From the NCBI GenBank assembly GCA_964390005.1, contig CAYMGM010000003.1, forward strand, positions 81,758 through 145,757: 64,000 nt of DNA, in the 5' to 3' direction. Below are positions 28,623 through 42,609 of this stretch, in pieces; within the stretch, counting starts at the first letter, position 1, and each line of letters starts with the position of its first letter. A model generated the notes under the pieces. The model was not told where the DNA came from, did no database searches, and saw nothing but the letters and a program-made list of their open reading frames with translations. The stretch is from an uncultured Rhodospirillaceae bacterium. Lineage in GTDB: Bacteria > Pseudomonadota > Alphaproteobacteria > UBA9219. The translations under genes were made by a program, and so were the position numbers.

Positions 28623-30406
28623 CGGACGACACGGCCTTTTTAGGGGTCGAGGCGTCCTTTACCGGACGTCGCTGGGAAGCGCGAGCGTACGACGAAAGAA
28701 CGGCGCTGGCGCTTTCTCAGCGTTATGACATCCCCGATGTGATTGCCCGCGCGCTATCGGCGCGCGGCCTAGGCCTGGACGACGCAGGCGCTTTTCTTGT
28801 GCCGCGCTTGCGCGATTTAATGCCCGACCCCAGTTCCTTTCGCGCTATGGATCCAGCGGTCGATCGTTTTATCGCGGCGGTTCGGGCGGGCGAAACCATT
28901 GCCGTCTTTGGCGATTATGATGTCGATGGCGGGACATCGTCGGCGCTGATGCTGCGCCTTGGGCGGGCGCTTGGCGCGAAGATGCGCCTTTATGTGCCGG
29001 ACCGCCTCGCCGAAGGTTATGGCCCCAATCCCGCGGCGATGCGCCGGTTGCGCGAAGAAGGCGCGGGGCTTTGCGTTTGCGTCGATTGCGGGACAACGGC
29101 CTATGAGGCGCTCACGGCGGCGCAGGATGTTGGCTTGGACGTTCTTGTCATCGATCATCACGCGGCTGAGCCGTCTTTGCCGCCTGCCGTGGCTCTTATC
29201 AATCCCAATCGTTTGGATGATCCCAGCGCGGTGCCATTTGGCGCGCTGGCAGCCGTTGGTGTGACGTTTTTGTTTTGCGTGGCCGTTTGCCGGGCTTTGC
29301 GTGGGCAGAACTTTTTTTCGGATGCGCGGCCTGCGCCTGATTTGATGCGCTGGCTTGATTTGGTCGCGCTTGGGACTGTGTGCGATGTCGTGCGTCTGAC
29401 GGGGCTTAATCGCGCCTTTGTGACGCAAGGGCTGAAAGTTATGGAAAGCGCCCCGCAAACGGGCGTTCGGGCGCTGATGCGCGCGGCGGGAGCCAAAGGC
29501 CGCGTCGATACCTATACAGCTGGGTTTATTCTGGGCCCGCGCGTGAATGCGGGCGGACGCGTTGGAAAATCGGATCTCGGCGCGCGGCTTTTGGCGACGG
29601 ATGACGAAGCCGAAGCTGTGCAATTGGCGGATGCGCTTCATGCGTTGAACGCGCAGCGGCAAGAGGTCGAGGCGGGCGTCTTGGCCGAAGCCGAGCGGTT
29701 GATGGAAGAGGTGGATACGGAAGCGCCCCTGATTTTTGCGGCATCGGAAGGCTGGCATCCGGGCGTGATCGGCATTGTGGCCTCGCGCTTGAAAGAACGG
29801 TATCACCGTCCCGCGATTGTTGTCGCGCTGGAAGGCGCTGAAGGAAAAGGATCGGGCCGCTCGGTCACGGGCGTCGATTTAGGCGCGGCGGTTATTGCCG
29901 CGCGTCAAGCCGGGCTTCTTTTGGCTGGCGGCGGGCACAAAATGGCGGCGGGTTTGACCGTGGCGCGCGATCAGATCGCGGCGCTTCAGGCTTTTCTAAG
30001 CGCGCGTATCGGCAAGCAAATGGAAGCTGCGCCGCTTCGCCCCAGCCTGTCGATTGACGGGCTTTTGGGCGCTCAGGCGCTCGCGCCAGCGTTTTTAGAA
30101 AAATTAGCCGCGCTGGCGCCGTTTGGTACGGGCAATCCCGAGCCGCGTCTTGCCATCGCCGATTGTAAAATCATTCGCGCCGATGTCGTCGGCGAAAAGC
30201 ATGTGAGTTTAATCGCGATGCAAGGTGGCACGCGGCTGCGGGCGATTGCTTTTCGCGCGATGGAAAGCGATTTAGGCACGGCGCTGATCAGCAGTCGCGG
30301 GAAGACTTGTCATTTAGCTGGGTACTTGCGTGCCGACGATTTTCGCGGCGGCGATGCCATGCAATTGGTTGTGAACGATGCCGGTGGGGCCGCCGAAGGC
30401 CTTTAA
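28619..30406 (+). CDS. recJ: Single-stranded-DNA-specific exonuclease RecJ
   Basis: DHH motifs (FGDYDVDGGTS, VIDHHA) and DHHA1 GGGHKMAAG. The start overlaps the glpX stop (ATGA). Confidence 0.92.
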   Translation: MTDDTAFLGVEASFTGRRWEARAYDERTALALSQRYDIPDVIARALSARGLGLDDAGAFLVPRLRDLMPDPSSFRAMDPAVDRFIAAVRAGETIAVFGDYDVDGGTSSALMLRLGRALGAKMRLYVPDRLAEGYGPNPAAMRRLREEGAGLCVCVDCGTTAYEALTAAQDVGLDVLVIDHHAAEPSLPPAVALINPNRLDDPSAVPFGALAAVGVTFLFCVAVCRALRGQNFFSDARPAPDLMRWLDLVALGTVCDVVRLTGLNRAFVTQGLKVMESAPQTGVRALMRAAGAKGRVDTYTAGFILGPRVNAGGRVGKSDLGARLLATDDEAEAVQLADALHALNAQRQEVEAGVLAEAERLMEEVDTEAPLIFAASEGWHPGVIGIVASRLKERYHRPAIVVALEGAEGKGSGRSVTGVDLGAAVIAARQAGLLLAGGGHKMAAGLTVARDQIAALQAFLSARIGKQMEAAPLRPSLSIDGLLGAQALAPAFLEKLAALAPFGTGNPEPRLAIADCKIIRADVVGEKHVSLIAMQGGTRLRAIAFRAMESDLGTALISSRGKTCHLAGYLRADDFRGGDAMQLVVNDAGGAAEGL

Positions 30407-31260
30407 GGGCAGCTTAACGTAATGGTATCATACTGTCCTCCGGAGGCGCTCTTGGTAACGCCTGTAAAATTGGGTGTGCAATACCAATAAATGACGAAGG
30501 ATTTCACATAATTTAAGCAAGTGTCACCGTAAAGATTGTTGGGGCCCGAGATTGTGCAGGAACTTTTTCCGTTACAATAAGATTGACTTGAACCTGTAAC
30601 GTTTCCGTTGGCGTTGTTTCCGCATGCAGATGCGCCATAACTTGCCGATGTAACCTGGATGAAGGAATAATCCGACGTTGTAATAGGCGTTCCAAAGGAA
30701 CCCGCAAGAACGACGGGATAATTGATATAAGTCGCAACGGGAATTCGTATTTGTAACGTTTGCCCGCTGGATAATGATGATGAAGCCGCAACCCAACCAC
30801 CACTGTTGACGTTGACTTGCCCTGTTTGAGGAAAGATTTGGATCGGAACGGTGCCCGAAAAGCCACCCGTTACCGTCGGGATATTTGTATAGTTATAGCT
30901 ACCATCGTACGCCGTGAATTTTAAAGAAAAGGCGTCAGGCATGGTTGCCCCCGCCGTGCTGCCGATATTGCTCCAGTTCGTTCCGTCACAATATTTCAAT
31001 GCGCTTCCAGTCCATTGCACGATGCCGGCGTGTGCGGTATCGCATGTGTCAGTACTGGCGCCAAAAAAATATGGGGCCCGTTGCCAGATTCCGTTTTTGC
31101 ATTGGAAAAGCGTGTCCCAGTCCGCACCGTTTGTTTTGTCGGGCGTGCAGGCGCTTCCGAAATTGTGGGCTTCATTCCCGACCGTTGCCGCTTGGGCTGT
31201 GGCGATTAAACAAAGACACGCCGCTTGAATCCAGAATGGGGATGAGAAAAAACGAAACAT
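30403..31260 (-). CDS. Secreted Cys-rich protein with a C-terminal SUEL-type (galactose/rhamnose-binding) lectin-like domain
   Basis: Start re-picked at ATG 31260 (GGAGG RBS 8 nt upstream). Signal peptide MFRFFSSPFWIQAACLCLIATAQA. The C-terminus IQVTSASYGASACGNN...SQSYCNGKSSCTISGPNNLYGDTCLNYVKSFVIYWYC follows the Gal_Lectin pattern (SAxYG..C...CnGkxsC...GDpC.g..K.l.v.Y.C). Confidence 0.7.
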   Translation of the reverse strand: MFRFFSSPFWIQAACLCLIATAQAATVGNEAHNFGSACTPDKTNGADWDTLFQCKNGIWQRAPYFFGASTDTCDTAHAGIVQWTGSALKYCDGTNWSNIGSTAGATMPDAFSLKFTAYDGSYNYTNIPTVTGGFSGTVPIQIFPQTGQVNVNSGGWVAASSSLSSGQTLQIRIPVATYINYPVVLAGSFGTPITTSDYSFIQVTSASYGASACGNNANGNVTGSSQSYCNGKSSCTISGPNNLYGDTCLNYVKSFVIYWYCTPNFTGVTKSASGGQYDTITLSCP

Positions 31261-31296
31261 AAAAAGACCTCCGATCCTATTGCGTGAAAGGAATGT

Positions 31297-31650
31297 CACC
31301 AAGGCGCAAGTGCCTTGGTGACCGGAGGTTCAAAACCGTCTAGATAGAAACGGCGCGACGCTTTTTAGCTTAAACTCTGCTTTGCCGAAGCAAAGCAAGA
31401 GCGGCGCTTGGACATATAGCGCCGCCCTCCGGTCCTTTGAAAAGACCGAGGGGCGGCATCTCTGGTGACGAGACAACGTTTCTTGTCAAGACACGACACA
31501 ACAACCTTCTGCGCAAAGCACGCAAAGCGAGCATGATCTGATCTTTAAAAGAAAACGCAAATCTCTATCTCCTGACGACCAAGATGCCTTGGCCGCTATC
31601 TAGAAAGGGTTTGAAGCCCCGGAAAGTAGACGGACTACTTTCGAAGAGAA
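31297..31650. ncRNA. Candidate structured non-coding RNA or long structured leader; identity and strand unresolved
   Basis: Lies in the 410-bp ORF-poor gap between two minus-strand genes. A long-range helix pairs 31321..31347 with 31596..31622 (shared core TCTAGATAG / CTATCTAGA). Nested hairpins lie at 31297..31320, 31375..31401, 31401..31426, 31421..31457, 31472..31487, 31579..31592 and 31622..31642. See finding. Confidence 0.35.
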
Positions 31651-31713: not shown

Positions 31714-32709
31714 TTACGTTGATTTTAATGAGGCTTCGACAGCGCGCCGCAGGCTTTGCACCACGCAGCCAAAGACGGTATCGGGCGACAGGATTTTTTC
31801 AATCACCAAGGTTGATCCAGCCGGATCGGGCGTGAAAGAGCTATGGCCTTGCGCAGGCCCTTGCGGCGTGACGGCGACAAAGCCGCGGCGGCCTGCATAA
31901 GCGTCAGGGATAAGGTGATAAAGGGACGTGTGAACATCGTGCATCACGGCGTCGATGCCGAACTTGCGCTGGTCCATCTCTTGCGGCGCGGCGATCAAAG
32001 CGGCGCAAAGCGCGGCGCGCGCAGGATCGGCAGCCAAGACCTGCAACAGCTTTTCTTTGCGGGCGGGGGTAAAGGTCAGCTGGTGCGTTAGGTTCATCGG
32101 GAACAAAACCAACGGCAAAGCGCTGGCCAGAACAGCGCGCGCATCTTGGGCGGCCATGTAAAAATTAAACTCGGCCTCTGGGGTAATGTTACCTTGGCGC
32201 GTTGCCATGTCGCGCGCAGGCATTGGCGCGGTGCAGCCGCCCATGATTAAAATCCGTTTGACGCGATGCATCGTCTCGGGATCTTTTCGCAGCGCTTCGG
32301 CAATATTCGTTAGGGGGCCTGTTGCCGTGACGATAACGCTTTGCGGCGGTTGGGCACGCAAGGTTTCAAGAAGAAAAGAAACGGCTTTTTGTGCCGAAGA
32401 TTTTGTCGATGCGTGCGGTAAAACTGTCCCGCCCAATCCATTTGCGCCATGCGCATCGTCGCCTTCAAGAGGCGGGCCACCGGAGGGACCTGCCGTGCCT
32501 TCGTAAACGGCAAGAGACGGCGCGTTTAAAAACGAAAGGATGTCTAAAGCGTTTTGGGTGACTTGTGGTAACGCGGTGTTGCCAAAAACGGCGCAAGCGC
32601 CAAGAATCTTGAACGATGCCGGATGCGCCAAGGCGACGGCGGCAAGCTGCATTTCATCGCCGCCCCAATCGCCGTCAATAATAAACGAAGTTGGCGCGGG
32701 CATGATCAA
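31714..32709 (-). CDS. Nucleoside hydrolase (IUNH family)
   Basis: FIIDGDWGGDEMQLAAV (DxDxxxD(D/E) metal/ribose motif), ATGPLTNIA and EAEFNFYMAAQDARAV (FNxxxDPxAA-like). The start overlaps the upstream stop (ATGA). Confidence 0.85.
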   Translation of the reverse strand: MIMPAPTSFIIDGDWGGDEMQLAAVALAHPASFKILGACAVFGNTALPQVTQNALDILSFLNAPSLAVYEGTAGPSGGPPLEGDDAHGANGLGGTVLPHASTKSSAQKAVSFLLETLRAQPPQSVIVTATGPLTNIAEALRKDPETMHRVKRILIMGGCTAPMPARDMATRQGNITPEAEFNFYMAAQDARAVLASALPLVLFPMNLTHQLTFTPARKEKLLQVLAADPARAALCAALIAAPQEMDQRKFGIDAVMHDVHTSLYHLIPDAYAGRRGFVAVTPQGPAQGHSSFTPDPAGSTLVIEKILSPDTVFGCVVQSLRRAVEASLKST

Positions 32710-33218
32710 GTGCCGCCGTTCTGATGGCGGACATATTCAAGCGCCGTGACATCGGCGACATGCGGCCCCCAAACGTCGCGGAGTTGGACTTGTCCTTCGC
32801 GCAAGGTCTTGAGGCGATTTTCCAAGCGGCCAATCGTATAGGCCGAAATAATCGGCGGGACGACAAAGATGATCAGCTGGCCAACAGCGGCAGCGCCGAA
32901 CATGACGATCCATGTCGTGGGGTTGTGGACGATGCGAACGGCGGTCTCCATGGATTGGCCCTTGCTCCACAGCTCGATCAGAAAGGGCGCAACGCCAGCG
33001 ACATTCATAAAACCGACAGCGGCTGTTGTTGATTTTTCAGGGTCCATATCGGTGAAAAGGGCGATGATGGTTGGGATTAGCCCTAAACAAATAAGAAGCG
33101 TCGGCAAGCCAAAAGGCACCAAAGCGCCGATAAGGGTCATCAAGATGATTAGGCCGATGCCTCCTTTGCCAAGGCGGTGCTTTTGACTGGGAAGAGGGGG
33201 CGGGCGGCGATGGATCAT
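32706..33218 (-). CDS. Small integral membrane protein (about 4 TM), hypothetical
   Basis: 170-aa ORF with hydrophobic helices GIGLIILMTLIGALVPFGL, LLICLGLIPTIIALF, VGFMNVAGVAPFLIEL and WIVMFGAAAVGQLIIFVVPPII. Translationally coupled to both neighbours. Confidence 0.6.
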   Translation of the reverse strand: MIHRRPPPLPSQKHRLGKGGIGLIILMTLIGALVPFGLPTLLICLGLIPTIIALFTDMDPEKSTTAAVGFMNVAGVAPFLIELWSKGQSMETAVRIVHNPTTWIVMFGAAAVGQLIIFVVPPIISAYTIGRLENRLKTLREGQVQLRDVWGPHVADVTALEYVRHQNGGT

Positions 33219-33232
33219 GCGGTCTTATCCTT

Positions 33233-35269
33233 TTAGCCGTTCAGGTTTTCAAAAAGCGCGCGCACAAGTGACAACGCAATGAGGACGATGGAAAGAAAAC
33301 TGGCAATGGTGGCGGCGACGGGGCGTCCCAGCGTTTGATTGACCTTGTCGCGGTTCTTTAGCATTTTGTCGATCTGCGTCATTTCGCGCGTGATGTCTTG
33401 GTACATCAGGCGCGCGCGCAGAAAATCCGTTTCATCGGCTTGAATGCGTTTCGGGTCGTCAACCGCGCGCAAGATCGCGCCAAGGTTACCGTTTGACGCC
33501 GCTTCTTTAACCTCGCGACGGATTTTTTCCTGCAAGGGCTTGCTGATAAAGTGCCGGATGTTCGGCTCGATCATCGGTAGAATCCAGGCGGCAAGGCCTG
33601 GCACCTTATCGGGGCCGTAGCGGTACTGTAGCTCGCTGAACAGGTTCAGCATCGCGATGCCGCGGCGCAAAGGCTGCTCGCCCGGGCTCATCGCGCCAAA
33701 AAGCGCTTCGCTTCGTTTATCGCGGATCAACAGATAGGCTGCTAAATGACGGTCCATCGGCTCGGCTGGGCGCGCGCCTTGGGTCGCCAGCGCTTCAAGC
33801 GACGCTAAAACATGGCGTGGCGATAGAATATAAAAAGACCGCAGCATGGGGCTGAGGCACGGCAAATATTGGTTTAGGTCGTAAAGCGCCCGCTCGATCC
33901 CGTTGCCGAACGTCGTGCGGTCGATGTGATTGCGCACGCGGTCGATTTGCTGAATCGTGGGCAGCATTTCCGTTTGCATCTCGCGCTGCATGCCCGCCCA
34001 AGCGCCGACAAGGCCAGTCGAGATCAACTCGCTAATCGTTTGGACATTGCCGTTCGTCAAAACGGAGTAAGCCAAAAAGCCCGCAACGCCAGACGGCATA
34101 ACCGAAATGCCGCGGTAGCGGATCGGGCCGTCGGGATCCAGCGCCATGCTGACGCGCGCGACAAGCTGATCTTGTTGATGTCCGCTTTTGCCGCGCTCTA
34201 AGATCTCTTCGGCGATCTCGCTGACTTTCTTCGATCGGTCTTCGTCGCCTAGCGATCGCATCAGCCATTTTTGAAGCTGACCTGTCTCGACCATCTTGAC
34301 GGCATCGGGCGGGTTGTTGACCAGCGCTGCCGCAAGCGGGCGCACATGCCAATATTCTTTTCCTGCGATGTCAAAATGGCGCGTGGCGCGCCGTCCCGCA
34401 TCCGAACTTTTGGGCGTCATGCGGCGGCCCGATTGCCATTGCTCAAGCTCGGCCGCGCTCCACCTTTGCGCCGGATCGTCGGCCAACAGACCGCGCAAAA
34501 GCTCGATATGCGACGAGGCAAGGCGTCGCGCGCCGATCAGCGTGCTGAACGTTCCTTTTTCCATTTTCATGGCTAAAAGCGTTTGATCGTCCATATCGGC
34601 CAAAGGATTCTGGCCCATGATGATCATGGCCATCGTGACACCAAAGGCATAGCAATCATCAACGTGAAGGCCAGGGCCGCGTCCCGCCGGTACGGCTTGA
34701 GAACGGTCAATTGGCTCGAACAAGGCCGGTTGATCAAAGCCGCAAGGAATGGTCAGGCAATCGCCAAACTGTGGCGGGGTCGAGCTGGCATGCCGCCAAA
34801 AAATGTTGGTCGGCCTGATCGCGCCATGAACAATGCCCGTGCGCTGAAAATCGAGCAAAGCGCGGATAAGCGGCGCGATAAAACTGTGTTTAAGCGAATC
34901 CTCGTTCATGACGGGATGAGGATCTTTTAAATTCTCCCAATAGCGCGGCGCGAGCGGCGTTTCAAAGGCAGCGGCAAAAAAAGATCCGCCGCGTTCAGGC
35001 CAATGAATAATGCCCGCTTCGCGCAAGCGCGGCACAGACGGATTGTCAAGCGAGCGCAGCGCCGAGACAAGCTCAAGTCGCGGCAGGGGGCTGTTGGTGC
35101 AGATCATCGCCATCAAATCCGACGATCCCATGCCGCGAAACTGCGCGGCAAAGGCCTCGCCGCCACTGCTGTTAAAGGCAGGCAGGGGCTGGTCCTGAAA
35201 AATCGCGACCCGCCCTTCAAGCAGAAGGGGCGCGACTTTGGATTCTGGTGCCGGGGCTTGAGGTGACAT
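33233..35269 (-). CDS. Membrane-anchored protein with an N-terminal Ser/Thr-kinase-like domain lacking catalytic residues (pseudokinase)
   Basis: GIVHGAIRPTNIFW aligns to the kinase catalytic loop HRDxKPxN with HRD replaced by HGA. No VAIK lysine is recognisable, and QFGD stands in place of DFG. DCYAFGVTMAMIIMGQNPL and LLADDPAQRWSAAEL match subdomains IX and XI. About 400 further aa are unassigned, followed by a C-terminal TM (VAATIASFLSIVLIALSLV). Confidence 0.75.
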   Translation of the reverse strand: MSPQAPAPESKVAPLLLEGRVAIFQDQPLPAFNSSGGEAFAAQFRGMGSSDLMAMICTNSPLPRLELVSALRSLDNPSVPRLREAGIIHWPERGGSFFAAAFETPLAPRYWENLKDPHPVMNEDSLKHSFIAPLIRALLDFQRTGIVHGAIRPTNIFWRHASSTPPQFGDCLTIPCGFDQPALFEPIDRSQAVPAGRGPGLHVDDCYAFGVTMAMIIMGQNPLADMDDQTLLAMKMEKGTFSTLIGARRLASSHIELLRGLLADDPAQRWSAAELEQWQSGRRMTPKSSDAGRRATRHFDIAGKEYWHVRPLAAALVNNPPDAVKMVETGQLQKWLMRSLGDEDRSKKVSEIAEEILERGKSGHQQDQLVARVSMALDPDGPIRYRGISVMPSGVAGFLAYSVLTNGNVQTISELISTGLVGAWAGMQREMQTEMLPTIQQIDRVRNHIDRTTFGNGIERALYDLNQYLPCLSPMLRSFYILSPRHVLASLEALATQGARPAEPMDRHLAAYLLIRDKRSEALFGAMSPGEQPLRRGIAMLNLFSELQYRYGPDKVPGLAAWILPMIEPNIRHFISKPLQEKIRREVKEAASNGNLGAILRAVDDPKRIQADETDFLRARLMYQDITREMTQIDKMLKNRDKVNQTLGRPVAATIASFLSIVLIALSLVRALFENLNG

Positions 35270-35386: not shown

Positions 35387-37246
35387 CTAGATCTGACGCA
35401 CGCCCCGCGTCTCTTTTCCGGGGCGGTCTGACCAGCTTTGAGCGACGCCAAGCCCAAGAAGAATTGCATAACTGGCGGCAATGGCTGGAATTTGCAGGCT
35501 AAAGTCTGCCAAAGCATGCAGCCCCACCAAAACACTGGCGGCCAAACCTAAGGTCGGCACATATTCCATGCGTCGTCGCTGCCGCACGCCTTGCGCACAA
35601 AGCGAAAGAAGGACCAAAAGCATGACGCCAAAAACAATGCAGGCTGGCAAGCCCCACTCGACGGCCAGCTCAAGATAATCGTTATGGGCGTGTTGAAAGC
35701 GCAAAGGCAGCGTATCGTTACGATAAAGGCGGAACGCGTTTTCAAAAGCGCCGAGCCCAAAGCCAAGCCACGGATTGTCCAAAATAGCATCGGCGGCCAG
35801 ATCATAGGCGCGCAGGCGCATTTCGGCGTCTTCGCCCAAAGTCGGCGAAACGCCTTCGCCGCGCGCGACAAGCAAATGTCCCGATGCGGCCAAAAGGCCG
35901 CCTAACAAGCCGATCAAGACAAGGCCGATGGCCAGGCCGCGCCAGCTTATGCCAAAACGGTTGATGATCAGACAAACGACAAAGACAAGCGCCCCCCCCG
36001 CCGTGCTGAAAAAGCCCGCGCGCGATCCCGATAAGACAAGAGCACAGAACAAAAGAACAGGCGGAAGAAAGACAAACAGGTCTTTGCGTTTCAGCCCCGT
36101 GCAAAAAGTCACGAAACGAATGCCCCACGAAAAATTCGTTCCGCCCATGCCAAAACGGTGTTTCATTTGCTGCCAAAGTAAGGCCAAACTTGCCAGAAAG
36201 GCTAAGCCCGTGTAGGTCGCAAAAGAGTTCTTGTTGATAAACGGCCCCGTGACAAAGCCTTCATACATCGTTTTGGGAAACCATAGAACGCGCTCTATCC
36301 CCAGCCAATGATCCAACAAGCCATATACGGCGTAAAAACAGGCCGTGCCGACAAAGACGCGCAACATAAGCTTGGCGCGCGCGCCGTCTCTTCCGGCAAA
36401 CAAGGCCAACAGGAAAAAAACGACATAGGACAAAACACGGGTCAATGATTCCTGTGCCGCGCTGGGGTCGATTGAAATCGCGCCATCTGACGGCGATTGG
36501 CCCGTAAGGGGGGCAGCCTCGATCCACAAGGGATGATGCCACGCGAGCGGCGTCCAGCTTACGACTTGAACCCAGCTCCAGCCAATCAGCGCTGTCATCA
36601 AGCCAACGGCAACAGCTAGCCTTTTATAAGGCGCGGCGCCCTCCCACTTTTCAGGCTTTTTGTAACGCGCATAAAGCGCGGCCATTAAAATCAACGCGCA
36701 AAAAACGCCCATAAGATCGCTGGACCAAGGGCGGTTGGCCCCAAAAGGAAGCGGTAAAAGCGCCCACAACCCCATAAAAGCTAAAAACCATCCCGGCTTG
36801 TCGGCAAACAGGGGGGCGGTTTGTTTGGTTGCGGCTTTCATCGCCTGCGCCCGACGCCGCGGTTGAGACTTTTCTTCTGCAACCATCGCGTCAAACGCCG
36901 CGCGGGAGGGAAACGGTTTTTGCGGCCTTGGCTGCGGCAGAACGGGGGCTTCAGGGGCTTCCGTGAGCGCCGGTTCTTGCGGTTGCTCATTCTCTGGCGC
37001 TGGCTCTTGTTGAGGCTCTGGTGCGGGTGGGGCAGGGGCTTCTTGAGGCGCGATAATCTCTTCGGCGACCTTGACCTCTTCTGTCGTTTTTTCTGCTGCG
37101 TTTTCTGGCGCGACGGGCGGCTCGGGCAAATCTAACGCCAGATTTTCTGGGGCGACAGCTGCCTGCGTTTCAGCCGTGGCGCGCTTTGATGTCGCGCCTT
37201 TCTTTTTGCGAGAGCCTGTCCGTGAAGCGTTCTTTTTCGTAGCCAT
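35387..37246 (-). CDS. O-antigen ligase / Wzy_C-family polytopic membrane protein with a Pro/Glu/Ala-rich N-terminal extension
   Basis: At least 10 predicted TM helices and the motif FQHAHNDYLELAVEWGL (H.HN.YL..l.e.G of the Wzy_C/RfaL/PglL families). Start re-picked at MATKKNASRTGSRKKKG (ATG 37246). Confidence 0.8.
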   Translation of the reverse strand: MATKKNASRTGSRKKKGATSKRATAETQAAVAPENLALDLPEPPVAPENAAEKTTEEVKVAEEIIAPQEAPAPPAPEPQQEPAPENEQPQEPALTEAPEAPVLPQPRPQKPFPSRAAFDAMVAEEKSQPRRRAQAMKAATKQTAPLFADKPGWFLAFMGLWALLPLPFGANRPWSSDLMGVFCALILMAALYARYKKPEKWEGAAPYKRLAVAVGLMTALIGWSWVQVVSWTPLAWHHPLWIEAAPLTGQSPSDGAISIDPSAAQESLTRVLSYVVFFLLALFAGRDGARAKLMLRVFVGTACFYAVYGLLDHWLGIERVLWFPKTMYEGFVTGPFINKNSFATYTGLAFLASLALLWQQMKHRFGMGGTNFSWGIRFVTFCTGLKRKDLFVFLPPVLLFCALVLSGSRAGFFSTAGGALVFVVCLIINRFGISWRGLAIGLVLIGLLGGLLAASGHLLVARGEGVSPTLGEDAEMRLRAYDLAADAILDNPWLGFGLGAFENAFRLYRNDTLPLRFQHAHNDYLELAVEWGLPACIVFGVMLLVLLSLCAQGVRQRRRMEYVPTLGLAASVLVGLHALADFSLQIPAIAASYAILLGLGVAQSWSDRPGKETRGVRQI

Positions 37247-37371
37247 GCCAAGACCAAGTAAAAACAAAAGGTTATAATGTATTTCCCCGTCCTTTATAAA
37301 GCATCTTGCCGCTAAAGGCAAAAAAGGGATGGGTGTGTCTAAGTAATTAAAAAATAAGTCTAATTTGGATG

Positions 37372-38990: not shown

Positions 38991-39066
38991 GTCCCCTTCG
39001 TCTAGAGGCCTAGGACACCACCCTTTCACGGTGAAAACACGGGTTCGAATCCCGTAGGGGACGCCA
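38991..39066 (+). tRNA. tRNA-Glu (anticodon UUC), CCA encoded
   Basis: GTCCCCTTCGTCTAGAGGCCTAGGACACCACCCTTTCACGGTGAAAACACGGGTTCGAATCCCGTAGGGGACGCCA. It folds as a cloverleaf (acceptor GTCCCCT/AGGGGAC, T-arm ACGGG-TTCGAAT-CCCGT, anticodon loop CTTTCAC) and is near-identical in layout to E. coli tRNA-Glu. Confidence 0.95.
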
Positions 39067-39098: not shown

Positions 39099-39342
39099 TT
39101 GGCGTTTTCTTCCGTAGAAAGAACCCGTAGGGCCGGCGGGCCGCCGGGGGCCTTTGTTATTCTTTCCGCGTCATCTCAATGTTTGATGGCTGAAACGCCT
39201 GTGAAGCGGTGGGAGAACTTAACGGTATTGATTTAAGACTATTTTAAGCTTGCCTTGCTAGCGATAGTATTCACACTCGTCGTGAGAGGTGGGATTCGCG
39301 CCTCTGCACGTTTCTTTCTGCCTATCCACTTGGGTGATTTCC

Positions 39343-42300
39343 ATGTCCTCTTTCCCGCTCAGAACATTCCTTGCCGCGTTGCTGGCTTCAAGCTGCTTTG
39401 TGCCTGTGGCGCAGGCGGCGACGATCACATGGGACGGCGGGGCGGGAACATCAAGCTGGTTTGATGCTAACAATTGGAGTGGAAATGCCGTTCCGACGAG
39501 TAGTGATGAAGTGCGGTTGGATGCAATAGGCGTTGACGTTAACGGACTTGTGGAAAGCACTGCGACGCTAAGCGTTGGGCATACAGGAACTGCTTCTTTG
39601 GCAATTGAGAATGGCGGCGCTGTTACGTCGTCTTCAGGTAATCATATTTTTGTTGGAAATGCCTCTGGCAGCAATGGAACGATTACAGTTAATGGAACGA
39701 ACTCGACGTTAGAAAGCGGAAACCAGCTTATTGTCGGATATCATGGCACGGGACGTTTAACCATTTCAGATGGTGGAAATGCAACAGCAGATTCAAGTAT
39801 TTATGCTGGTTACCTAACGGATGGTGTCGGCACGATTGTCGTTACAGGCTCTGATTCGATGTTGGAGAGTGGAAAACATTTTTTCGTTGGCTATTCCGGT
39901 AGCGGCAGCCTAACGGTTTCTGATGGTGGTACCGTCAGCTCTGCATCAGGGTATAATATTTATGCAGGTACCTATACTGGAAGCACAGGAACAATCACAG
40001 TAACAGACATTGGATCGACGTTGGAGAGTGGAAATGCCGTCGTTATCGGCAATTATGGCACTGGCACGCTGACAATATCTGGCGGAGGCTATGTCGGCTC
40101 TACGGATGACAGCATTTATGTAGGTTACAACGCTGGTAGCACAGGAACAATCACAGTAACAGGTTCTGGATCAACGTTGGCGAGTGGCAGAAATGTTTAC
40201 ATAGGCCAATCAGGCACAGGTACGCTGGTCATCTCGGATGGTGGTATTGTGAGTGATGCCTATGGAGAAATAGGAACCGTAGCTAACTCTATCGGCACAG
40301 TAACTGTAGTCGGTACAGGATCAAGGTGGACAAACTCTGATATTCTGTATGTTGGGCGTTCCGGTTCCGGAACGATGTTGGTTTCTTCTGGAGGCACTGT
40401 TAGTAGTGGCACCTCTTATATCGGGGCATGGAGCAACTCCACGGGCGACGTCACAGTAACCGGCTTGGGATCAACGCTGGAAAGCGGGCAGAATATTTCC
40501 GTCGGAAATGCGGGTGACGGCACACTCACGGTATCAGACTCTGGCACCGTTTCCACGTCTGGCGTCCTCACCATCGCGGCGGACACCGTCTCCACCGGTA
40601 CGCTGAACATCGGTGCGGCGTCGGGCTCTTCTGCCGTGGCTCCCGGCACGGTTACAGCCTCGCGCGGCATCGTCTTCGGCGGCGGCACCGGTACGATCGT
40701 CTTCAACCATACATCGACCAACTATACCTTCGCGTCGTCGATCTCCGGCGTGGGCACTATCGAGAGCGTCACGGGTACGACCTATCTCACTGGCGATCTT
40801 TCCGGCTTTTCCGGCACGTTCGATCTCGAGGGCGGGACGTTGAGCGTCGTGACCTCCGGCGTGCAGACCCTTTCAAACAGCCTCTCGGGCTCGGGCACCA
40901 TGGCCTTCGCCTCCGGCACCACCTACCTGACTGGCGACAGCTCGTCTTTCACCGGCACGGCAGCCGTGTCCGGTTCGGGGATCCTGTCCGTGAACGGAAC
41001 ACTCGGGGGTACGGTGGACGTAGCTGACGGCGGCACCTTGAAGGGCTCGGGCACCGTCGGTGGGATTGATGCGGCTTCGGGCGGCACAGTCGCCCCTGGC
41101 AACTCCATCGGAACCCTTTCTGTCTCTGGCAATGTGAGCTTTGCTAGTGGTTCGACCTATGACGTTGAGGCCAATCTTACCAGCTCGGACAAAATCGTAG
41201 CCACAGGCGCGGCCACAATCACGGGCGGAGACGTATCGCTGATCGCCTATCAAGGGGCGCTGCTTCGCGCCGGGACCACCTACACCATCTTGACCGCCGA
41301 TGGCGGCGTCTCAGGCACGTTTGACAGCATTTCTTTTGCCGATCCTCTTCTCTTTTTGACCGCGACGCTGTCCTATGATGCGACGGATGTTTACGCCTCA
41401 GTGATCCGCAATGGGGTTAGCTTGGCCAGCGTGGCCGGATCGGGCAATCAGGCGAACGCCGCCGCCGCAATCGAAAGCCTTGGCGCCGGGAATGCCGTTT
41501 ACGATGCCGTGGCCATGCAAAGCGATGTCGGCACGACACGCCAAGCCTATCAGGCTCTGTCAGGCGAGATTCACGCGAACGTGAAGGCCACGCTTCTTGA
41601 AGATCAAGCCGCCTTCGGGCGCGTCTTGGCCGGACGTTTGGCGCAGGCCGAAGACAATCAAACAGGGTTTGCCGCGCCGGTGACGGCTCCGGCCCCTGTG
41701 GTCGCTTCTGCGCGCGGGCGGATCCTTTATGGCGACAAGATCGCGAATGATGCTGCTGTTGCAAATGCCAAGATTGCGCCGACCGTTTGGGCGCAGGGCT
41801 TTGGCGGCTGGGGCAGCCGCGACGGCGACGCGAACGCCAGAGATTTTAAGCATCAAGACAAAGGTCTGATGCTGGGCGTGGACGGGATGATGGGGGATAA
41901 CTGGCGTCTTGGCCTCGCCTTTGGCTATGACCATGCGGATTATAATCAAGAGGACGAGACAGGCGACAAGGGCACGTCAGAGCGTTACAGCGTCTCGGCC
42001 TATGGCGGGCGGAGCTGGGGCAAGCTGAGCCTGCGAACTGGCCTTACCTATGCCTATAGCGACATCGACACCAAGCGGGGCGTGAGCTTTCCTTATTACA
42101 GCGATTATCTGAAAGGCTCCTATAACGCCCACAGCGTGAGCGGCTTTGCAGAAACGGCCTATGGCTTTGGCGACAAGGAAAGCAAGATCGAGCCCTTCGC
42201 CAATCTGGCTTGGGGTTATGTGAATGTGCCCGGCTTTACCGAAAAAGGCGGCGCGGCGGCGCTGACCGCCGAAGACAGCGACGGAACGCTGGGCAGCACA

Positions 42301-42609
42301 ACGCTGGGCGCGCGGGTGCGGCAAGTCTTGCCCTTCCTGACATCGGCCAACAATCGGGCGGCGTTCCAAGCCTCGGCGGGGTGGATGCACGCGATTGGCG
42401 ACGCGAACCCCGAGACCAGCTTGCGCTTTGCGGGCTCTCGCGCCTTTGAAACCCAAGCGGCCCCGCTGGCCCGCGATGCCGCTGTTCTTGGCGCTGGCGT
42501 TGATTATCTGATCGGCCAGCAAACCACGCTTGGCCTTGCGTACACCGGCCAGATCGGCGCGCACGCCGACACCCAAGCCCTTCGCGGGAATCTGAGCTAT
42601 CGGTTCTAA
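39343..42609 (+). CDS. Classical (type Va) autotransporter with a repeat-rich passenger
   Basis: Signal peptide MSSFPLRTFLAALLASSCFVPVAQA. ITWDGGAGTSSWFDANNWSG opening. Seven roughly 58-aa tandem repeats (G(S/T)xGT(I/V)TVTG..STLESG...(L/V)T(I/V)SDGG), then PATR-like beta-strand repeats. C-terminal beta-barrel ending LRGNLSYRF. Confidence 0.9.
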   Translation: MSSFPLRTFLAALLASSCFVPVAQAATITWDGGAGTSSWFDANNWSGNAVPTSSDEVRLDAIGVDVNGLVESTATLSVGHTGTASLAIENGGAVTSSSGNHIFVGNASGSNGTITVNGTNSTLESGNQLIVGYHGTGRLTISDGGNATADSSIYAGYLTDGVGTIVVTGSDSMLESGKHFFVGYSGSGSLTVSDGGTVSSASGYNIYAGTYTGSTGTITVTDIGSTLESGNAVVIGNYGTGTLTISGGGYVGSTDDSIYVGYNAGSTGTITVTGSGSTLASGRNVYIGQSGTGTLVISDGGIVSDAYGEIGTVANSIGTVTVVGTGSRWTNSDILYVGRSGSGTMLVSSGGTVSSGTSYIGAWSNSTGDVTVTGLGSTLESGQNISVGNAGDGTLTVSDSGTVSTSGVLTIAADTVSTGTLNIGAASGSSAVAPGTVTASRGIVFGGGTGTIVFNHTSTNYTFASSISGVGTIESVTGTTYLTGDLSGFSGTFDLEGGTLSVVTSGVQTLSNSLSGSGTMAFASGTTYLTGDSSSFTGTAAVSGSGILSVNGTLGGTVDVADGGTLKGSGTVGGIDAASGGTVAPGNSIGTLSVSGNVSFASGSTYDVEANLTSSDKIVATGAATITGGDVSLIAYQGALLRAGTTYTILTADGGVSGTFDSISFADPLLFLTATLSYDATDVYASVIRNGVSLASVAGSGNQANAAAAIESLGAGNAVYDAVAMQSDVGTTRQAYQALSGEIHANVKATLLEDQAAFGRVLAGRLAQAEDNQTGFAAPVTAPAPVVASARGRILYGDKIANDAAVANAKIAPTVWAQGFGGWGSRDGDANARDFKHQDKGLMLGVDGMMGDNWRLGLAFGYDHADYNQEDETGDKGTSERYSVSAYGGRSWGKLSLRTGLTYAYSDIDTKRGVSFPYYSDYLKGSYNAHSVSGFAETAYGFGDKESKIEPFANLAWGYVNVPGFTEKGGAAALTAEDSDGTLGSTTLGARVRQVLPFLTSANNRAAFQASAGWMHAIGDANPETSLRFAGSRAFETQAAPLARDAAVLGAGVDYLIGQQTTLGLAYTGQIGAHADTQALRGNLSYRF

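Follow-up and report, generated by a model that had tools for sequence, protein, structure and literature searches.

A conserved alphaproteobacterial gene pair coding for a probable membrane-anchored pseudokinase and a polytopic membrane protein

Seven families of bacterial pseudokinases are listed in the literature, ActPs1-3, GLW, CP1, DYD and DLHK; no function is known for them, with the exception of EssB/YukC and the MviN domain, which were studied separately (PMC12599244; bioRxiv 10.1101/2025.01.12.632604). ActPs1-3 are actinobacterial, and CP1, DYD and DLHK do not contain transmembrane (TM) regions (bioRxiv 10.1101/2025.01.12.632604; PMC12599244); the GLW family is proteobacterial and features a C-terminal TM, a GLW motif where HRD would be expected and, at beta3, a poly-Leu stretch (LLLL/W) (PMC12599244). 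The protein described here is encoded by the first of three minus-strand genes, found within 64,000 nt of DNA from an uncultured Rhodospirillaceae bacterium (contig CAYMGM010000003.1, positions 81,758 to 145,757 of the forward strand); this whole stretch is indicated as the window in the following. The three genes code for a C-terminally membrane-anchored pseudokinase (gene 1), a small polytopic membrane protein (gene 2) and a nucleoside hydrolase of the IUNH family (gene 3). A preliminary description, made from the sequence of the window, had read them as a single system, where the pseudokinase acts as a sensor for the hydrolase, or else controls or scaffolds it. The comparison with relatives indicates that genes 1 and 2 are a conserved two-gene module, of which the hydrolase is very likely not a part.

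Among the described families, GLW also features a C-terminal TM helix, but in gene 1 a helical domain of about 350 aa is inserted between the kinase domain and the TM, and in the family HRD is replaced by H-G/N/R-A/G/S, while beta3 reads L-M-A-I-x-C. Judging from the published motif descriptions, which set it apart, the gene 1 family appears to fit none of the seven.

EssB/YukC, a membrane pseudokinase of type VIIb secretion in Firmicutes (PDB 6Z0F; PMC9600267, PMC12599244), resembles gene 1 for the Hanks-type fold, the decay of each of the three catalytic motifs and the single-pass anchoring; its action as a non-catalytic scaffold for polytopic membrane partners may be likened to the role proposed below for gene 1. 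The two differ in several respects: in EssB the TM is followed by a sizeable extracellular domain, while the TM of gene 1 is located at the extreme C-terminus, with only 9 residues following it; EssB is found in type VII secretion system clusters, while no secretion genes are present in those gene 1 loci for which gene calls or gene clusters were inspected; gene 1 is alphaproteobacterial, and contains the 350-aa helical cytoplasmic domain in addition. No EssB/YukC entry is found among the 50 Foldseek matches listed for gene 1.

A tether to a polytopic membrane protein is also seen in the MurJ-fused pseudokinase domain of MviN from Mycobacterium tuberculosis (ActPs3; PDB 3UQC), which acts via protein-protein interaction rather than catalysis, as may be the case for gene 1. 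The MviN domain, however, is actinobacterial, is fused to the membrane protein and has, as a hallmark, a deletion of the activation loop, whereas here two separate, translationally coupled genes are found, and gene 1 has a full-length kinase fold, with about 300 columns aligned to PknB. YabT from Bacillus subtilis (PMC6333020) shares with gene 1 a cytoplasmic kinase-fold domain, a C-terminal TM anchor and the lack of an extracellular sensor, but it is an active kinase and has no counterpart of either the helical domain or the 4-TM partner. Literature searches found no description of the gene 1 family, of a tail-anchored bacterial pseudokinase, of a Magnetospirillum homologue or of a pairing of a pseudokinase with an IUNH protein; for the pairing, this agrees with what had been remarked in the preliminary description.

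The pseudokinase, its helical domain and its anchor

Gene 1 (33233..35269, minus strand) is an open reading frame (ORF) of 678 aa; its full-length homologues number more than 262, with a length of about 677 aa. The match to the Pfam Pkinase model is sub-threshold (E 2.8e-4, 20.8 bits vs a cut-off of 31.7) and limited to the C-lobe. When PDB sequences were searched by phmmer, residues 118-277 were aligned to PAK4, with HGA falling on HRD and QFG on DFG. The AlphaFold2 (AF2) model, based on 51 homologues, reaches a predicted local distance difference test score (pLDDT) of 88.4 and a predicted template-modelling score (pTM) of 0.82, and contains a complete N-lobe (five strands and alphaC, residues 15-103) and a C-lobe. 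The top matches found by Foldseek in the PDB with this model are all kinase domains (WNK3, CaMKII, PknB; E about 1e-7), with about 300 aligned columns and template-modelling scores (target) of 0.6-0.7. On the basis of the Foldseek and PAK4 alignments, the kinase-like domain extends over about residues 15-280 (34430..35227, minus strand). The fold, which had been called unmistakable, is therefore well supported by the AF2 model and by Foldseek, and not by the sequence, where the Pfam match is weak. The subdomain motifs quoted in its favour are found where they had been reported: GIVHGAIRPTNIFW at residues 145-158, DCYAFGVTMAMIIMGQNPL at 205-223 and LLADDPAQRWSAAEL at 261-275.

The VAIK Lys, the HRD Asp and the DFG Asp, all reported as missing in the preliminary description, are indeed absent: the beta3 Lys is replaced by C57 (35099-35101, minus strand), HRD by H148-G-A (34820-34828, minus strand) and DFG by Q167-F-G (34763-34771, minus strand). 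A census of residues was carried out on an alignment of 243 full-length members of the family. At the position of C57, Cys is found in 194 of the 243 members, and the other residues listed are A, G, S, V and I, with no Lys among them; at the position of A150, corresponding to the HRD Asp, three members feature an Asp; at the position of Q167, corresponding to the DFG Asp, no Asp is among the residues listed, which are Q, V, I, M, T and A. The family consensus is VHG(A/G)IRPTN in the HRD region, and LMAIxC at beta3. Little or no variation is seen at H148, N155, G169, E185, D205, G210, R269 and W270, and the mean column identity over the kinase-like domain is 62%. The loss of the catalytic triad is common to the whole family, involving all or nearly all of the 243 members. 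Because all three catalytic residues are lost family-wide, no canonical phosphorylation is expected from gene 1, and there is little doubt that its product is a pseudokinase. Family members are labelled 'serine/threonine protein kinase' by NCBI, a label which is misleading.

Two further possibilities were considered and dropped. Active-kinase relatives, sharing the same C-terminal domain, were not found, the inspection covering the best 150 of 1,428 clusters: among the 243 members there is no beta3 Lys or DFG Asp, and the HRD Asp occurs in the three cases mentioned. A metal or redox site based on Cys residues (C57, C171, C206, C471) was also taken into account: C57 and C171 do not covary (Fisher p 0.38), and the covariation of C57 with C206 looks phylogenetic.

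The kinase-like domain is followed, at about residues 290-640 (33350..34402, minus strand), by a domain predicted in the AF2 model to be all-alpha, with two short beta-hairpins, and conserved over its full length. When modelled alone, it reaches a pLDDT of 83.8. No family or fold could be assigned to it: no Pfam match was found with 20 members tested, no PDB match by either sequence or profile search, and no Foldseek match of the model in PDB (best E 0.9, template-modelling score below 0.2) or BFVD. A profile search of 1.84 billion cluster representatives, defined at 50% identity, retrieved 1,428 clusters at E <= 1e-3, 850 of which at E <= 1e-30; in the best 150 of the 1,428, where the architecture was viewed, all full-length entries are 660-740 aa long, with the helical domain located at about 290-680. 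Residues 290-470 may contain an internal duplication, where a beta-hairpin followed by helices occurs twice; the comparison of residues 290-378 with 379-470 by hhalign, in the same register, is suggestive only (E 0.002, probability 14%).

A long helix (606-638) leads into the sole hydrophobic segment of gene 1, at residues 651-669 (33263..33319, minus strand), where hydropathy peaks at 2.54. In the model, a continuous helix is predicted from 640 to 676, and 9 residues are found beyond the TM segment. The C-terminal TM anchor of the preliminary description is therefore confirmed as one hydrophobic helix. Since this segment is single and C-terminal, the whole protein should face the cytoplasm, with the C-terminal helix acting as an anchor.

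The membrane partner and the recurrence of the pair

Gene 2 (32706..33218, minus strand) is an ORF coding for a polytopic membrane protein of 170 aa, with 3-4 TM segments. The 14-nt spacer which separates it from gene 1 (33219..33232, minus strand) contains a Shine-Dalgarno-like AAGGA. Hydropathy identifies hydrophobic stretches at residues 20-56, 65-83 and 102-132, the first of which, 37 residues long, is interrupted by a conserved PFxxPT. Of the earlier assignment as a 4-TM protein, the polytopic nature stands, and the number of four is plausible, as hydropathy resolves 3-4 segments only. The N-terminus is basic, while a conserved, amphipathic C-terminal helix ends in WGxxV; both termini are predicted to be cytoplasmic. 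The conserved motifs are PT..ALxTD, GxxNxAG..PF, LW.KGQ and WG..V. Profile searches of Pfam, NCBIfam and PDB produced no match for gene 2.

Relatives of gene 1 were found in 288 genomes, when one genome per GTDB species was scanned. Named carriers are mostly Alphaproteobacteria, including many metagenome-assembled genomes (MAGs), Micavibrio, Magnetospirillum, Paramagnetospirillum and Phaeospirillum; other phyla appear in the labels of a few bins. Neighbourhoods were analyzed by tblastn of the window proteins on 85 loci, from both genomes and metagenomes (the best 80, plus five fetched directly). Of the 79 informative loci, 58 feature the gene 2 partner immediately downstream of the pseudokinase, at a distance of 3-14 nt or with a 4-nt overlap; an adjacent partner is not present in 27 of the 85 loci, six of which end at or just after gene 1. 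In a reverse scan, started from the membrane protein (alignment of nine sequences), 45 metagenome loci were found, and in 32 of them the pseudokinase is directly upstream of the partner. For at least 6 of the remaining 13, too little upstream sequence is available to judge. L116, L121, L122 and L126 are clear cases of a partner without an upstream pseudokinase, and L120, L123 and L131, with about 0.5 kb of upstream sequence, may be further ones; these four to seven copies of the partner appear to be unlinked. Pseudokinase and membrane protein are thus a conserved two-gene module.

The behavior of the hydrolase is different. No IUNH gene was found within 6 kb in any of the 84 other pseudokinase loci, the only positive being the window's own contig, or within 4 kb in any of the 45 loci identified from the membrane protein. 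The sole other case where an IUNH gene follows the pair is locus L087, in which gene 1 is 69% identical: here the order is O-antigen ligase, pseudokinase, partner, IUNH, with the IUNH gene, seen as its first 44 residues starting MAALDLIVDSDWGGDV, overlapping the partner by 14 nt. Because the O-antigen-ligase-like upstream gene is shared as well, the trio in L087 indicates recent common ancestry, and not an independent recurrence. When co-occurrence and synteny are counted, therefore, it is the pair of pseudokinase and membrane protein, and not the trio, which is conserved as a unit: the hydrolase accompanies the pair in the window and in L087, while about 125 other loci are devoid of it within 4-6 kb. 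The trio of the preliminary description does not survive this count, nor does the idea of a pseudokinase which serves the hydrolase as a sensor, controller or scaffold; very likely, the IUNH gene does not belong to the conserved system.

The wider context of the family varies by clade. In the half of the family that is more divergent, at 28-41% identity to the protein of the window, hisZ and purA precede the pseudokinase and its partner, in this order, and rpoH lies downstream in convergent orientation. A total of 42 loci show purA directly upstream of the pseudokinase and on its strand, the two being mostly 100-290 nt apart. Loci with this arrangement (L044-L085, L110-L138) come from Magnetospirillum, Phaeospirillum, Micavibrio and marine MAGs. 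In a second clade, including 15 loci, tilS is directly upstream of the pseudokinase, at about 55 nt; in L014, L019, L020, L025, L029-L033, L035, L036, L038 and L039, which belong to this clade, acetyl-CoA synthetase, or gpsA and dnaN, are found downstream of the pseudokinase in the place of the partner. In a third clade rpoN is located upstream. Such neighbours (purA, hisZ, tilS, rpoN, rpoH) indicate that the module is a vertically inherited, housekeeping-type feature; none of the five genes is present within the 64-kb window. Apart from the synteny with purA, which is to be seen as a weak lead, no recurring sign points to purine metabolism.

The nucleoside hydrolase and the surroundings in the window

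Gene 3 (31714..32709, minus strand) codes for an IUNH-family nucleoside hydrolase of 331 aa, if translation starts from TTG, or 329 aa, if it starts from the ATG at 32703, which is the start in the public gene call for the same contig. The junction with gene 2 (TTGATCATG; 32701..32709, minus strand) reads ACT TGA TC ATG, and therefore corresponds either to a gap of 2 nt before the ATG, or to a 4-nt TTGA overlap from the TTG. The ATGA overlap, previously reported for this junction, is wrong; the tight packing of the three minus-strand genes, with 14 nt in the first gap, is correct. Since all three have many conserved homologues, none of them is a chance ORF, and in this organism they are probably co-transcribed.

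The match of gene 3 to PF01156 (IUNH) is strong (E 1.6e-56, 192.6 bits vs a gathering cut-off of 34.2), and matches to the structures of plant NRH and E. coli RihA/RihB range from E 1e-26 to 1e-30. Alignment to RihA/RihB/RihC and to the plant enzyme covers the whole domain, with about 35% identity estimated by eye in the two alignments shown, and the aspartate cluster, GN, TN, ExN and HD positions are conserved. The N-terminal Asp cluster is DGDWGGDE, whose final E is found in 57 of the 63 subfamily members, and N42, T132/N133, E178, N180 and H255-D256 are conserved: the intact DxDxxxD(D/E), which had been noticed earlier, is thus accompanied by the other catalytic positions. The subfamily, which consists of about 63 sequences at 40-59% identity, differs from the characterised enzymes by DGDWGGDE instead of DTDPGxDD. 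A 9-residue insertion (APMPARDMA...), absent from the plant enzyme, precedes the GNxxPxAEFN segment of gene 3. Scores are far below the NCBIfam equivalog cut-offs (the best is RihC, 127 bits vs 382): gene 3 is a member of the IUNH family, but is not orthologous to any characterised enzyme. It contains neither a membrane segment nor a novel domain suggestive of docking.

Of the three closest homologues of gene 3 located on long contigs, none is near a pseudokinase. The 59% identical one (L090:7697-9564) is about 4 kb from genes of a Dot/Icm-type type IVB secretion system (TrbI/DotG-like, DotH/IcmK), the 53% identical one lies among genes for periplasmic binding proteins, and the 50% identical one adjoins a gene of the pyridine-nucleotide-disulfide oxidoreductase family and a glycosyltransferase gene. 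The secretion genes in L090 suggest an association with hosts for some of the bacteria which carry this IUNH subfamily.

Upstream of the trio, on the same strand and after a gap of 117 nt, an O-antigen-ligase-like gene (Wzy_C) is found (35387-37321, minus strand; 644 aa), coding for a membrane protein with an N-terminal extension of about 190 aa, low-complexity and rich in Pro, Glu and Ala; a gene of this kind also precedes the pseudokinase in L087. About 410 nt downstream of the trio there is a gene for a lectin-like protein (30403-31302, minus strand), followed by recJ and glpX. The N-terminus of the lectin-like protein is hydrophobic and resembles a signal peptide, while its C-terminal part weakly matches SUEL/rhamnose-binding lectin, below cut-off (E 4.4e-5); a homologue is located divergently upstream of the pseudokinase in L086, a 79% identical relative. 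A tRNA gene (38991-39063, plus strand) is the sole Rfam match in the window. Downstream of it, an ORF of 1,106 aa (39289-42609, plus strand) contains a repetitive, passenger-like region, rich in Gly, Ser and Thr, and, by eye, an autotransporter-like C-terminus. GC content over the locus is unremarkable, with no anomaly of composition, and a scan for promoters and terminators gave counts no higher than in shuffled sequence.

Proposed role of the pair and rival explanations

The proposed explanation, held with moderate confidence, is that of a conserved alphaproteobacterial pair, acting as a non-catalytic membrane complex, to which an unrelated salvage enzyme has been appended in one lineage. 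Gene 1 would face the cytoplasm, held at the inner membrane by its single C-terminal helix; its Hanks-type fold, which retains the structural core (H148, N155, the E185-R269 pair, D205), is fused to the helical domain of about 350 aa. Gene 2, predicted to cross the membrane three or four times with cytoplasm-facing termini, would be translationally coupled to gene 1. The two may form a membrane complex, where the pseudokinase and the helical domain offer the polytopic partner a platform for docking or for the sensing of a ligand; the chances of this scaffold mechanism are judged about even. The IUNH gene would have arrived downstream of the pair in the close lineage of the window, as a co-transcribed passenger and not as a component of the module, and its product would be an ordinary cytoplasmic nucleoside N-ribohydrolase.

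A number of observations weigh against this explanation. The complex between genes 1 and 2 is suggested by their adjacency, the only link between the two; in the tilS clade there is no adjacent 4-TM partner, the two genes being unlinked in about 13 loci, and 4 to 7 of the partner loci with usable upstream sequence have no pseudokinase upstream. The surroundings of the former active site are very conserved: H148 is found in 237 of the 243 members, N155 in 235, G169 in 236 and R64 in 238, position 170 is acidic (E/D) in 234, and Ala54, in beta3, is present in 207. Such a conservation, beyond the need of a pure scaffold, could point to ligand binding or to non-canonical chemistry. Finally, the IUNH gene is tightly packed with the pair in two genomes (a 2-nt gap or a 4-nt overlap here, a 14-nt overlap in L087) and is therefore probably expressed together with it in this lineage, where a functional link, locally acquired, is conceivable.

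Non-canonical chemistry would find precedents in WNK, SelO and SidJ, kinase-fold proteins with relocated or different catalytic residues. By analogy, gene 1 might be an atypical enzyme of this kind, acting on its membrane partner or on a small molecule, as may be indicated by the clustering of near-invariant residues (H148, N155, G169, E/D170, R64) at the would-be active site, and by purifying selection across the whole domain. Yet no Lys is found at or near beta3, where the consensus R43 and K45 are not conserved, and are replaced by Q and R in the window; no clade features an Asp at either catalytic position, apart from the three members already mentioned for HRD; and pseudokinases devoid of all three motifs are nearly always devoid of ATP binding (PMC12599244). 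The atypical enzyme is accordingly regarded as unlikely. The conserved, degenerate pocket (A54, N155, G169, E/D170) might, alternatively, bind a purine nucleotide or nucleoside without turnover and signal via the helical domain to the partner, making of the pair a membrane switch responsive to purine nucleotides. This is quite improbable; if true, it would explain both the deep hisZ-purA-pseudokinase synteny across Alphaproteobacteria and the recruitment of the hydrolase downstream in this lineage, and would bring the bacterial pseudokinase families to eight, the eighth being joined to a new fold. A purine link is also called upon when the three genes are taken as one system, where a pseudokinase able to bind nucleotides or nucleosides controls or scaffolds the hydrolase at the membrane. 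The tight packing of all three genes, both here and in L087, is in favor of such a system, as are the independent, purine-related neighbour found elsewhere, with purA upstream in 42 loci, and the retention of adenine-pocket positions (Ala54, a partial Gly-rich loop, N155). The lack of the hydrolase near the pair in about 125 loci, the unrelated contexts of its nearest homologues and its lack of a membrane segment or docking-type domain make it very improbable; in addition, the distances between purA and the pseudokinase, mostly of 100-290 nt, agree with transcription as separate units and with a synteny that is inherited.

Kinase-domain proteins and effectors depleting nucleosides or nucleotides are both known themes of bacterial defence, and the pair or the trio could, in principle, be a mobile defence module, or one of toxin-antitoxin type. 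Weak PADLOC matches were indeed obtained to the kinase domains of mad6 (E 8.8e-8), MkoA (E 1.6e-7) and PD-T4-6, and an NCBIfam match to MADS6 (E 1.4e-5). These, however, involve only the generic kinase C-lobe or domain, far under the family cut-offs (23.8 bits vs 460), and neither the membrane protein nor the helical domain matches any defence model. Housekeeping neighbours in deep synteny (purA, hisZ, tilS, rpoH), the uniform composition of the locus and an architecture and length fixed over about 1,400 clusters are likewise not those of a mobile element. The defence reading, the least credible of those considered, was rejected, the matches to mad6/MADS6, MkoA, PD-T4-6 and LanL being generic to kinases and far below cut-off.

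The preferred explanation thus remains that of a pair acting without catalysis at the membrane. The claim of a nucleoside hydrolase controlled by a pseudokinase fails when relatives are compared, and the outcome is a well-delimited, uncharacterised family rather than a system of a new kind. Bacterial pseudokinases are a recently recognised class, almost unstudied, to which gene 1 would add a further family, alphaproteobacterial and of fixed architecture, consisting of about 1,400 clusters at 50% identity, and featuring a 350-aa domain without relatives in either sequence or fold, along with a dedicated membrane partner. By analogy with the described systems, the pseudokinase is most likely a non-catalytic membrane scaffold. 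Its family is present in cultured organisms, such as Magnetospirillum fulvum, M. aberrantis and Paramagnetospirillum, where deletion studies may be feasible.

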